Below, one piece after another: positions 1 through 27,743 of a DNA stretch of 28,503 bases. This DNA is from a virus. Numbering within the stretch: position 1 is the first letter of the stretch; each line of letters begins with the position of its first letter. The translations under genes were made by a program, and so were the position numbers. A model generated the notes under the pieces. That model saw nothing but the letters and a program-made list of their open reading frames with translations, was not told the origin of the DNA and did not search any database. The stretch is taken from UHGV virus genome UHGV-0003692, one strand, 5' to 3'.

Positions 1-90
1 TCACTCTGCCAGATGGCGCAATGCCATCTGGTATCACTTAAAGGTATTAAAAACAACTTTTTGTCTTTTTACCTTCCCGTTTCGCTCAAG
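1..90. other. Host chromosomal flank (B' side of a lambda-type attB)
   Basis: Sequence directly abutting the att core on the side away from phage genes; minus-strand reading after the core is CTTGAGCGAAACGGGAAGG..., which matches my recollection of the E. coli attB B' arm. Contains a 9-bp inverted repeat at 8-33. Confidence 0.55.
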
Positions 91-105
91 TTAGTATAAA
101 AAAGC
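91..105 (-). mobile_element. attR: Prophage attachment site attR core (lambda-type 15-bp core)
   Basis: Plus strand TTAGTATAAAAAAGC is the reverse complement of GCTTTTTTATACTAA; phage-type P-arm sequence on the high-coordinate side and host-like sequence on the other gives POB'. Confidence 0.75.
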
Positions 106-251
106 TGAACGCGAAACATTAAAAACCATTAATATCAATGTGTTACAATATATTTAGTCTAAAAAATAGACTACATAATGCTACAAAACACAACATATCC
201 AGTCACTATGAATCAACTACTTAGATAGTATTAGTGACCTGAGACAGAGCA
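106..251 (-). promoter_or_regulatory. att P arm (Int arm-type, IHF and Xis site region)
   Basis: AT-rich, non-coding; minus-strand reading closely resembles the lambda attP P arm as recalled (AGGTCACTAATAC...TCTAAGTAGTTGATTCATAGTGACTG...). Individual protein sites not mapped. Confidence 0.55.
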
Positions 252-291
252 TTAGCGCAAGGTGATTTTTGTCTTCTTGCGCTAATTTTTT
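252..291 (+). terminator. sib/tI-like intrinsic terminator
   Basis: Perfect 10-bp inverted repeat TTAGCGCAAG (252-261) / CTTGCGCTAA (276-285), 14-nt loop, then TTTTTT (286-291) on the plus strand; position just beyond the P arm matches the lambda sib retroregulation site. Confidence 0.6.
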
Positions 292-383
292 GTTATCAAA
301 CATGTCGCACTCCAGAGAAGCACAAAGCCTTGCAATACAGTGCAAAGCTTTGTGCGTATCAGTTTTGTCCTGTGCGCCGGATG

Positions 384-830
384 TCATCTGGCCTGAACTG
401 CCGGAGGAGTAGGCCATTCAATATCTGGCGCACTGGAAGTATCGACCAGTTCCAGTGCGTCCAGATAATCCAGCCACAAATTATATTGCGCCAGTTCCTC
501 ACCTTTCAGACGACCAATAGCGGCTTTACCGGGCCACTGCTTACTATTGATATAATAGTTAGCCTGCTCAATACGGGACCTTTTTTCGGCGTCAGCAGTT
601 CTAACAAGTTCTTCGTGAGTCGGTTTAGGTTCATCTACCCATTCAGGGAAGCCATCATTCCCTGCTGCACGTATCTTGCCATCCGGTGCATTTTCTGCTT
701 TCCAGGAGATAAATCCGTCCTCATCAAAATCGACTCCCTCATCAGGCCATTGCCCGCTTGCCAGGTAGCTATCCTTAAGGGAGTAAGGGAAAAATTCGTT
801 TGTAACTGCTGAGTATCTGTATTTGGTCAT
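384..830 (-). CDS. Tail fibre assembly protein (Tfa-like chaperone)
   Basis: 148-aa ORF immediately downstream of the tail-fibre gene; translation reads like Tfa family proteins (W/P-rich C-terminal part). ATG at 830. Confidence 0.65.
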   Translation of the reverse strand: MTKYRYSAVTNEFFPYSLKDSYLASGQWPDEGVDFDEDGFISWKAENAPDGKIRAAGNDGFPEWVDEPKPTHEELVRTADAEKRSRIEQANYYINSKQWPGKAAIGRLKGEELAQYNLWLDYLDALELVDTSSAPDIEWPTPPAVQAR

Positions 831-4507: not shown

Positions 4508-4532
4508 AAAAAACCCGCCGGGTGGCGGGTTT
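4508..4532 (-). terminator. Intrinsic terminator closing the moron cassette
   Basis: Minus strand reads AAACCCGCC-ACCC-GGCGGG followed by TTTTTT; GC-rich stem with U-tract, overlapping the stop of the upstream gene. Confidence 0.7.
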
Positions 4533-4947
4533 ATGAATCGTAGGTTTTCAATTTTTCGAGTTCATCAGGAGGAAGTTCTATGAAGGTTTCCTCTGCTAAT
4601 TTTATCAGCCGGGGAAGCATCGAATCAGCTTGCTGATGAGCGTTTGGGCTGATGATTGCCAATATCTGATAGTGTTCATCGATATAAAGATGCTGAGCAT
4701 ATACCAAAAAATTATCACATGTCCGTTCACTCAGAGATGCTTCTGGAGGCCAGGGTTTATCGCCAGGTAGCTTTAAGTGAATTTTCCTGATGTTGGCAGC
4801 CATCGCATCATAGTTACGTTCAAAACCGCCTAACGAACCAAAACACCAGAACTGGGAACCCTTTGAAATATAATCGGCAAGCATTTGAGCATACTTATGT
4901 GCTGCAGCTAAATGACGCAATTCTCCCGTGATACTGACTTTTGCCAT
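4531..4947 (-). CDS. YafO-family toxin-like protein (putative type II toxin, mRNA interferase family)
   Basis: 138-aa ORF, ATG at 4947, 1 nt after the upstream stop. Shares motifs along its length with E. coli YafO as I recall it (ADYIS vs ADFISY; IHL...P.PP; LVYAQ...DE...ILAII.P..H vs LVYCQ...DE...LIAIL.P..H). Gene region visibly AT-richer than flanking tail genes. Confidence 0.55.
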   Translation of the reverse strand: MAKVSITGELRHLAAAHKYAQMLADYISKGSQFWCFGSLGGFERNYDAMAANIRKIHLKLPGDKPWPPEASLSERTCDNFLVYAQHLYIDEHYQILAIISPNAHQQADSMLPRLIKLAEETFIELPPDELEKLKTYDS

Positions 4948-4948
4948 G

Positions 4949-5521
4949 TCACATCCATTTAGGGGCGTTGGCTCCCAGCATCTTATGCGATGTTGAGATC
5001 AGTTCAATAGCCTCTTCACGGGTAACATTATCTGACAAGAGCTCAGCCTGGAAAGGCTGCGATTGCCTAACTTCAGCGGCCAACTGAGTTGCAGTGTTCT
5101 CGACGGCGGTCAACGCACGAACATATTTGCGTTTTAATGGGCGCAACATTTGCAGATGGCCTTGCCACATAGGGGACCTTTCCGCTTCAGAGAACATATC
5201 CACTAAATGTCCTTTAGCATTTCGGCATGCCTTGGCAAGACCTTCGAGATGGGATAAAAACTCTTCCGGAAGCTCATCAACAATGATTCTCCCATTTCGA
5301 AAAGCTTCGAGATGAGACATGCCTTCCTTCGCGGTATTTTCGATTTCTTGAGCGCGTGCAGCAATCGCGGTACAACGACGAAATACCTCTTCAGCATCTA
5401 ATCGTTGTGGCAGTTCACAAGCATTAGAGATCAGGGGTTTGAAAGCACCGTTAACAGCTTCCTGAACCTGATTCATTTGTTGTGTAATTGTTGCCAGCGC
5501 AAATGCGTAGCTAATCGCCAT
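4949..5521 (-). CDS. Hypothetical protein, putative partner/antitoxin of the YafO-like gene
   Basis: Track ORF begins with TTG at 5527; first ATG at 5521 is preceded by GAGGG at good spacing (190 aa from ATG). Predicted helical, no family recognised; stop is 1 nt before the downstream ATG. Confidence 0.5.
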   Translation of the reverse strand: MAISYAFALATITQQMNQVQEAVNGAFKPLISNACELPQRLDAEEVFRRCTAIAARAQEIENTAKEGMSHLEAFRNGRIIVDELPEEFLSHLEGLAKACRNAKGHLVDMFSEAERSPMWQGHLQMLRPLKRKYVRALTAVENTATQLAAEVRQSQPFQAELLSDNVTREEAIELISTSHKMLGANAPKWM

Positions 5522-5534
5522 ACCCAATCCCTCT

Positions 5535-22532: not shown

Positions 22533-22970
22533 TTATTTCAGGCATTGCGTCCTGATGTATTCCTGCAGGTAGTTAACCTGCGCGGTTATCTTGTCGATTC
22601 CACTTCGGAGACGGTAATAATTGAGTTCAGCATCTGCTGTAAGTCCTGGGCTTTCTCCATCGCCCATGCCGCTGGCTCCGGTCGTTGACTTTGCACAGGT
22701 GGCGGCGACTTGCAGGCGCTTACGCCCAGCAGAAACATCATCACGGAGACTTTCGATAGTCGCGTTAGCATCAGCAAGCTCCTTTGTATATCTGGCATCG
22801 AGTTCTGCTACATCACGTTGACGCTTCTGCATGTCAGCGATAATGAATGCGGCCTTATCGCGCTGTTCTTTGTAGGTCATGGCGTTATCACGGTAATGAT
22901 TAACAGCCCATGACAGGCAGACGATGATGCAGATAATCAGAGCGGAAATAATCGCGGTGACTCTGCTCAT
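22533..22970 (-). CDS. Rz: Spanin inner-membrane subunit Rz (i-spanin)
   Basis: 145-aa ORF; N-terminal 30 residues ([30 protein letters not shown]) nearly identical to lambda Rz as recalled; ATGA overlap with the endolysin stop. Confidence 0.8.
22586..22771 (-). CDS. Rz1: Spanin outer-membrane lipoprotein Rz1 (o-spanin), embedded in Rz in +1 frame
   Basis: ORF nested inside Rz; from the internal Met gives signal [19 protein letters not shown] followed by Cys (lipobox VSAC) and a Pro-rich mature part. Start among three in-frame Met codons is uncertain. Confidence 0.6.
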
Positions 22971-23905: not shown

Positions 23906-24149
23906 ACCCGCTTTCACGAAGGTCATGTGTAGAAGGCCGCAGCGTAACTATCACTGATGAATTCAGGATAGCCAGTGGCTACGGCTCAGTTTGGATTGTG
24001 GCGACCGGTGCTGATCTCCGGTTTGCTGCAACTGCCTACAGCGGGCTACGTGGCCACACCGAATCCAGCGAAAGATTCTTGCCCTTACACATCAGCCTGT
24101 GCATTCACCACAACGATAAGAGCACTGCGCGGCACCTTTCACCTATTCC

Positions 24150-24249
24150 GCGAGGTCTGCGGGTTCAATGCTCTTACCTGTTATGCAAACAAAAAAAGCC
24201 ACCGTTGCAACTTAAGAGTCACTAACGGCAGCTTACCCTCTAATTATGG
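24150..24249 (-). promoter_or_regulatory. Late promoter PR' / Q-utilisation (qut) region (approximate)
   Basis: Non-coding stretch immediately downstream of Q containing TTGCAA and a nearby CATAAC/TGCATAA element on the minus strand; exact -35/-10 and start site not resolved. Confidence 0.3.
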
Positions 24250-27219: not shown

Positions 27220-27743
27220 GCCGCCCTCCTGACGCCCTGCCCGATCGCCATCAATGCCGCTTTGGATACGGTAGTAAACATCCGTCGAGGACTGATGAAC
27301 GGTCGCCAAATCAGCAGCATGGAGCCTTTGCTGTTTCCCTTCTTCTCCAGCCCCGTCGATGGTTCGATAAAATTAATCCGTCCATCAGTGATAATGCGAA
27401 CTTCGTCGACACTCTCCAGAGCCTTGCTGAACCATCCGACTGACATATCCTCTGGCACAAGCATCACTACCGTCTGTCGCTGTTGTATGCACTGCTCAGC
27501 GGCTTTTTCCACCCACGGCCTGATATTGCTGTACGGTGGGTTATTCCAGATTGCACCGTGGCTTATCCACTCAGAATTGAGCGCGTCGTCGGCCTCAGTT
27601 AGCCAGTGAGCACACAGAGCATTTTTGTCGCTCGCTGCCGAATCCAGCCAGAATCCAAACTCAATATCCAGTGCATCAAAAAGCCAAAGCGGCGTTTGCC
27701 AGCAGTCCTTGTCGTGTGCTGGCGTATTTGATTTGATAGTCAT
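27216..27743 (-). CDS. DNA N6-adenine methyltransferase (phage Dam-like)
   Basis: 175-aa product from ATG 27743 (ATGA overlap with the NinB stop); contains the NPPY catalytic motif (WNNPPYS) of N6-adenine methyltransferases. Confidence 0.7.

Follow-up and report, generated by a model that had tools for sequence, protein, structure and literature searches.

The left end of this DNA raises the question of where the prophage that it carries stops and the host chromosome begins, and at which site the prophage was inserted. The window analyzed in this study (the whole stretch of 28,503 nt) is a cut of a 35,093-nt contig from a Hadza gut metagenome (ERZ15264218 NODE_2971), which has about 6.5x coverage according to the contig name. 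Our results indicate that positions 1 to about 360 are very probably the attR (P-O-B') of a SEN34-like lambdoid prophage, which would have been integrated by Int at attB(lambda), between ybhC and ybhB/bioA, and which carries the tI/sib hairpin of lambda. The features of this end are listed in Table 1.

Table 1. Features at the left end of the window, from the host flank to the last phage gene
Feature	Position	Strand	Basis
Host DNA (B' arm and remainder of the attB-ybhB intergenic region)	1-90	-	Identity to K-12 MG1655
B' core-type Int half-site TAACTTG	87-93	-	Identical to K-12 attB
Common core GCTTTTTTATACTAA	91-105	-	Exact match; aligns with lambda 27724-27738, annotated misc_recomb
7-bp overlap TTTATAC	94-100	-	Inside the 15-bp core
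C core-type Int half-site CAGCTTT	101-107	-	Identical to lambda; 6 of 7 columns invariant in 13 lambda-att sites
H2 IHF site TATCAATGTGTTA	133-145	+	Matches consensus WATCAANNNNTTR; homologous to lambda H2
Xis-binding region (X1 165-177, X1.5, X2/Fis 149-161)	149-177	-	X1 12/13 and X2 9/13 identical to lambda
P2 arm-type Int site CAGTCACTAT	200-209	+	Homologous to lambda 27620-27629, inside the annotated 'int 2' region
H1 IHF site AATCAACTACTTA	211-223	+	Exact IHF consensus; identical to lambda
P1 arm-type Int site AGGTCACTAA	231-240	-	Identical to lambda P1, inside the annotated 'int 1' region 27583-27602
Extended stem (236-250 with 287-306), predicted in read-through RNA only	236-306	+	Minimum-energy structure and centroid
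tI terminator / sib retroregulator core (stem 251-261 with 276-286, then T-run to 291)	251-291	+	Lambda identity and fold
Second hairpin, between tI and the tfa stop codon	315-360	-	20-nt arms, 85% complementary; z -3.7
Tail fibre assembly gene (tfa), last phage gene before att	384-830	-	148-aa ORF; Pfam Caudo_TAP

The 15-bp lambda core was found as a single exact match in the 28.5-kb window, for which the chance expectation is about 0.03 matches even with two mismatches permitted. From the attB core (K-12 807328) rightwards, the core and B' flank of E. coli K-12 MG1655 were identical to window positions 1-105 (105 of 105), and the base preceding the ybhB stop codon corresponded to window base 1. 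In GZ2408P and FJ_Ec_21, the end of ybhB lies directly left of the sequence that matches window base 1, and ybhB, bioA, and bioB come straight after the flank in closed genomes with the same arrangement. Judged from this identity, the flank is the bio-side (B') arm of E. coli attB(lambda) itself, between the core and ybhB/bioA. The junction reads CAGCTTT-TTTATAC-TAACTTG, that is, C-O-B'. Lambda attP has TAAGTTG (C') at the position where the window and K-12 attB have TAACTTG (B'), the B' half-site being defined as is established for lambda.

All long ORFs of the window are on the minus strand, including nin/Q-type genes (right) and genes for lysis, terminase, head, sheath/tube, baseplate, tail fibre, and tfa. 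On the same strand, the left end shows the order of lambda attR (P-O-B'), namely the last late gene, hairpin, P arm, core, and flank. Relative to the lambda map, this minus-strand layout means that attR, the 'right' end of the prophage, is found leftmost in the window. A preliminary description of this DNA had proposed the lambda core at 91-105, a lambda-like P arm on the prophage side, a B'-like host flank on the other, and hence the right end of a prophage integrated at a lambda-type attB. These proposals were all upheld, with a P-O-B' junction at the ybhB side, and one of the checks fixed in advance, namely a match of positions 1-90 to the chromosome beside attB(lambda), was run and gave identity to K-12 with ybhB adjoining. 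For the flank the result went beyond the proposal, since it is not only B'-like but the B' arm of E. coli itself.

Within the B' flank, a perfect 11-bp host hairpin was observed at 7-33, just downstream of ybhB (dG -19.4, z -4.5), and is probably the terminator of ybhB. An Rfam scan at the gathering threshold gave no Rfam family in the whole window. Likewise, ARAGORN identified neither tRNA nor tmRNA in the window, and thus no tRNA is associated with the att site, as would be expected from lambda. A tRNA-Thr/tRNA-Asn pair is present between Q and the holin gene in GZ2408P, FJ_Ec_21, and EC2001, and is absent from the window (about 23990-24190).

On the prophage side of the core, the reverse complement of window 106-354 aligned without gaps to lambda 27475-27723, which comprises the P arm and tI/sib (window position = 27829 - lambda coordinate). 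Identity to lambda was 59/63 left of the hairpin, 51/55 from P1 to P2, 57/76 from X1 to H2, and 21/22 over C and the core. The sites P1 and P2 are in inverted orientation, each at the position homologous to that in lambda; the 10-mer of P2 is identical to lambda, with one mismatch nearby but outside it, and is the sole exact match to the arm-type consensus in the 28.5-kb window. The IHF consensus had two exact matches in the whole 28.5 kb, which are H1 and H2. The consensus positions of H2 are kept relative to lambda and its N positions are changed. The lambda record has binding features ('int 1-3') that match the positions of P1, P2, and the core. The X1 and X2 positions follow the Xis footprints and are approximate. 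On this alignment, window 106-354 is a lambda-family P arm in which the Int arm sites, IHF sites, X1, and C appear intact.

For the analysis of conservation, 13 natural lambda-att sites were aligned (lambda, 434, HK106, 720R6, and nine attR sites from E. coli with inner-arm identities of 76-99%), and two degraded fossil sites were added for comparison. Among the 13 sites, all columns were invariant in P1 (10/10), the overlap (7/7), and both stem arms of the hairpin (11/11), as were 12 of the 13 columns of H1. H2 showed changes at the four N positions alone, apart from one sequence with a change at the terminal W, and the spacers varied freely. This pattern across P1, H1, H2, the stem arms, the overlap, and C is what would be expected under functional constraint.

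One segment of the P arm departs from lambda, namely X2/Fis, which is TTTTTTAGACTAAAT in the window versus TTTTTTATGCAAAAT in lambda. The window-type segment was common to all 12 non-lambda sequences aligned, including 434, HK106, and 720R6. In every site examined except lambda, X1 and the X2 position form the inverted repeat AGTCTATTTTTTAGACT (AGTCT-N8-AGACT). The window-type inner arm was present at an identity of at least 80% in 1,692 complete E. coli genomes, and the lambda-type inner arm at an identity of at least 90% in only 206. The count for the lambda type was restricted to these 206 matches; a total of 4,304 matches to the lambda inner P arm in E. coli, at about 75% identity, were judged spurious, as those sampled were not at the ybhB junction. 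By these counts, lambda is the minority form at X2/Fis, and the wild-type P arm differs there, which is a mildly new point. GZ2408P combines the window-type arm with an Int and a Xis that are identical to those of lambda at 353 of 356 and 71 of 72 positions, respectively (99%), and lambda-like Int and Xis would probably work on the window-type P arm. It is conceivable, although in our opinion unlikely, that Xis and Fis assemble differently on the common arm, in which case the canonical model of the excisive intasome would describe an atypical variant. Such a difference, if true, could concern stoichiometry, orientation, or Fis dependence.

The tI/sib hairpin has a stem of 11 perfect pairs plus one G-U pair and, together with its flanking A and T runs, is identical to lambda tI/sib at 48 of 48 positions. 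The + strand folds with a dG of -27.7 kcal/mol (z -4.9), and none of 200 shuffled sequences folded as well. The hairpin is located at -154 to -194 from the centre of the overlap, the distance and orientation being those of lambda. Its stem arms are unchanged in phages with quite different neighbouring genes, which suggests that the hairpin travels with the att/int module. A rule-based terminator scan missed the hairpin because its loop exceeds the 8-nt limit of the scan, and the sole call of the scan was a weak candidate on the minus strand (325-305). A U-run follows the stem on the + strand only, and the hairpin is therefore predicted to terminate only + strand transcripts, which is the direction of int transcripts.

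In the circular phage, the hairpin would be downstream of int, some 190 nt past the core. As in lambda, transcripts from pI would stop at tI and yield stable int mRNA, and N-antiterminated transcripts from pL would read through and form the longer stem, which by analogy with lambda would be the RNase III substrate of sib; its cleavage would lead to degradation of int mRNA (retroregulation). In the integrated state, the hairpin would have no effect on int because the whole prophage separates the two. According to the passage of PMC5300877 that cites Schindler and Echols (1981), sib retroregulation lowers Int synthesis, and in the prophage sib is apart from int, so that induction yields both Int and Xis.

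The hairpin could instead serve mainly to terminate neighbouring transcription, either at the end of the late operon or as insulation from ybhB, in which case the retroregulation of int would not be its chief function. Its place 92 nt past the last late gene would suit such a role, as would the fact that in the prophage this + strand terminator would face read-through from host ybhB. However, the minus strand has GCUCUGU in place of a U-run and a weaker fold, and thus the hairpin is not an intrinsic terminator for the late-operon transcripts. Moreover, in sequence, orientation, and distance from the core it equals lambda tI/sib, and its stem arms do not vary among phages whose neighbouring genes differ. 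Insulation from ybhB would be compatible with the role of sib and would not replace it. Accounting for the hairpin by neighbouring transcription is thus quite improbable in our assessment, and we continue to regard it as the tI/sib element of lambda.

On the phage side of the hairpin, tfa has its stop codon at 384-386, separated by 92 nt from the T-run and by 278 nt from the core, and all but about 30 nt of the interval between tfa and the core is DNA homologous to att/sib. No b-region genes were found between tfa and att. In lambda, about 5.2 kb with ea47, ea31, and ea59 separate tfa (which ends at 22557) from the core, compared with 278 nt in the window; HK106 likewise lacks the b region and has only about 0.5 kb. 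The preliminary description had given the hairpin and its T-run as 252-291, oriented as in lambda sib/tI, with the tail fibre assembly gene ending about 90 bp away and the b region essentially absent. The coordinates were right to within a base (the stem starts at 251), and the orientation, the distance, and the near absence of the b region are all in agreement with our results.

The second hairpin in this interval begins 24 nt past the tfa stop codon. It is kept in lambda (27475-27520) and HK106 and is replaced in 434 and GZ2408P, and neither strand has a clear U-run after it. Two other ORFs, at 217-417 (minus strand) and 330-812 (plus strand), were rejected, as they had no support and overlapped tfa or the conserved att/sib DNA. 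The RefSeq annotation of relatives contains only an 84-nt pseudogene fragment there. In addition, the window and the stored ENA copy of the contig differ at a single base, position 852 (T versus C, respectively); this difference changes the tail-fibre stop codon TAG to TGG and adds six residues. Among other samples, C was found in L010 and T in L006, L008, L009, and L011.

The structural module, from terminase to baseplate, had 96% identity to E. coli phages of the vB_EcoM-611R5 type and 83% identity to SEN34. Salmonella phage SEN34 is a temperate, lambda-related phage with Myoviridae morphology (PMC5261728). These identities characterize the window phage as a SEN34-like, contractile-tailed myovirus with lambdoid early genes. 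The structural modules of SEN34 (Brunovirus) and the vB_EcoM-611R5 type are homologous to that of the window, but in E. coli this module is mostly found at other chromosomal sites, whereas the window, GZ2408P, FJ_Ec_21, and EC2001 have the lambda att. This indicates that the lambda att is one of several integration cassettes of the group. Within the baseplate gene block, a gene for a YafO-family toxin (138 aa) and an upstream 190-aa ORF were identified at 4531-5527 on the minus strand. At the same spot, FJ_Ec_21 carries a DUF4236 gene and EC2001 carries Arc repressors and a P22AR antirepressor, and the spot looks like an insertion hotspot for morons.

Compared with lambda, the window has the same core, C, P1, H1, P2 consensus, tI/sib, spacing, attB(lambda), and B' arm, whereas it differs in the X2/Fis stretch and in the spacers that surround H2, and its virion module is unrelated. 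The P-arm variant of the window, TAGTCTATTTTTTAGACTAAA, is present in the attP of 434 and HK106 and in the attR of 720R6. Over the P arm and sib, the phage record closest to the window is that of HK106 (93.7% identity, window 87-369), and the P22-like prophage vB_EcoP-720R6 shares the P-O-B' junction, with ybhB and bioA adjoining. Unlike the myovirus of the window, 434 and HK106 are siphoviruses and 720R6 is a podovirus. The P arm and sib of the window type adjoin prophage ends of quite different kinds, those of T28R and of a P22-like prophage among them. The sequence just outside the hairpin is of at least two types, one shared by lambda, HK106, and the window and the other by 434 and GZ2408P; the two types switch at the A-run of the hairpin, which indicates a mosaic joint there. 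In 1,922 of 5,426 complete E. coli genomes (about a third), at least 80% of window 41-300 was covered at one place, and on this coverage these genomes hold a P-O-B' junction of the same family.

The source contig ends in the nin/replication region, before attL, int, and xis are reached, and its 60-kb sibling likewise ends about 28 kb into the phage. An exact look-up of the NinB protein in the direction of attL matched only unrelated lambdoid prophages and was uninformative because NinB is common to thousands of contigs. The 420-base junction was identical in three other contigs from other samples, where it runs on into ybhB and bioA, and the arrangement was also present, with small differences, in the closed genomes of GZ2408P, FJ_Ec_21, and EC2001. 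GZ2408P has direct repeats of the core at 591-605 and 41227-41241 of L004, about 40.6 kb apart, and FJ_Ec_21 has them at 605-619 and 42300-42314 of L027, about 41.7 kb apart. In both genomes the structural module of the window occupies this att site, with xis (72 aa) and int (356 aa) adjoining ybhC, and the P' arm of GZ2408P is identical to that of lambda. The other check of the preliminary description, a further core copy at the opposite prophage end, thus turned out positive in these two relatives. By analogy with them, there is good support for its proposal that int and xis are located past the right edge of the window. Among the relatives, EC2001 has the tfa-sib joint most similar to that of the window, and its prophage exceeds 50 kb owing to an inserted element. 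This element, which is satellite-like and 12 kb long, lies among the head genes of the related prophage at the same att site (about 17000-29200 of L026) and has genes for two integrases, AlpA, a DUF927 primase, and a few baseplate-like proteins. A further contig with the same phage end (L008, ERZ28614141 scaffold_4243) stops at window position 91, the outer edge of the core. Such a break would be expected if P-O-B' coexists in that sample with P-O-P' or with a different flank.

The ability of the window prophage to excise is likewise suggested by its relatives. If excision proceeds as in lambda, Int would bridge B' to P2, IHF would bend the arm at H2, and three Xis, helped by Fis, would cooperatively bend the X1-X2 stretch (X1-X1.5-X2). 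The attR complex would then synapse with attL (B-O-P'), and recombination would restore attP and attB. How the P-arm sites act in excision and integration has been described, with attP using P1, H1, and H2 in integration (PMC4880445).

It should also be considered that this end is an attR by origin but now the fossil of a defective or stranded prophage, in which attL, int, or xis has been lost or replaced. The other prophage end is indeed absent from the contig, and fossil P-O-B'-like sites are known in the prophages PPompW and OkiPb01711, beside genes for T3SS effectors. The P arm of the window also adjoins rearranged tail-fibre remnants in many E. coli, such as T28R, where P arm and sib are identical at 259 of 260 positions and adjoin a diguanylate cyclase gene and an invertible tail-fibre segment. 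Nevertheless, the late-gene set is unbroken from the nin region to tfa, and every site of the P arm appears intact, unlike those of the degraded fossils. The 420-base junction is identical in several independent samples, attL, xis, and int are kept in both complete relatives examined, and the end of the contig from another sample coincides exactly with the edge of the core, which would be expected if alternative junctions coexist. A stranded prophage is thus very unlikely, and we retain the interpretation of this end as the attR of a SEN34-like prophage integrated by Int at attB(lambda).

The sites in PPompW (LC567818.1, about 2990-3260 of L022) and OkiPb01711 (L035) are themselves degraded P-O-B'-like sites in another lambdoid prophage. 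They have a host-specificity gene on one side and genes for the T3SS effectors (espO, nleG, and espM) on the other, and comprise the core GGCTTTTTATACTAA together with sib, a P arm, and a B'-like flank that has diverged. This arrangement looks like what remains of an old, aberrant excision event through which the phage picked up flanking DNA and cargo.

The notion that metagenome assembly joined phage and E. coli reads into a chimera through the AT-rich core, which is common to attP and attB, would accord with the low coverage of about 6.5x per contig name but is effectively refuted, since three other contigs from other samples have the identical 420-base junction, the closed genomes GZ2408P, FJ_Ec_21, and EC2001 contain it with small differences, and 1,922 of 5,426 complete genomes cover at least 80% of window 41-300.

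For annotation, these results place the prophage boundary at 91-105, assign bases 1-90 to the host, and designate attB(lambda), at ybhC/ybhB, as the integration site; the junction further predicts lambda-type int and xis past the end of the contig. The junction itself is textbook lambda biology, already known, at a very commonly occupied site, and leaves the current understanding unchanged. Taken together, these results suggest that the att-int-sib cassette of lambda moves as a mosaic unit among lambdoid phages with siphovirus, podovirus, and myovirus virions.
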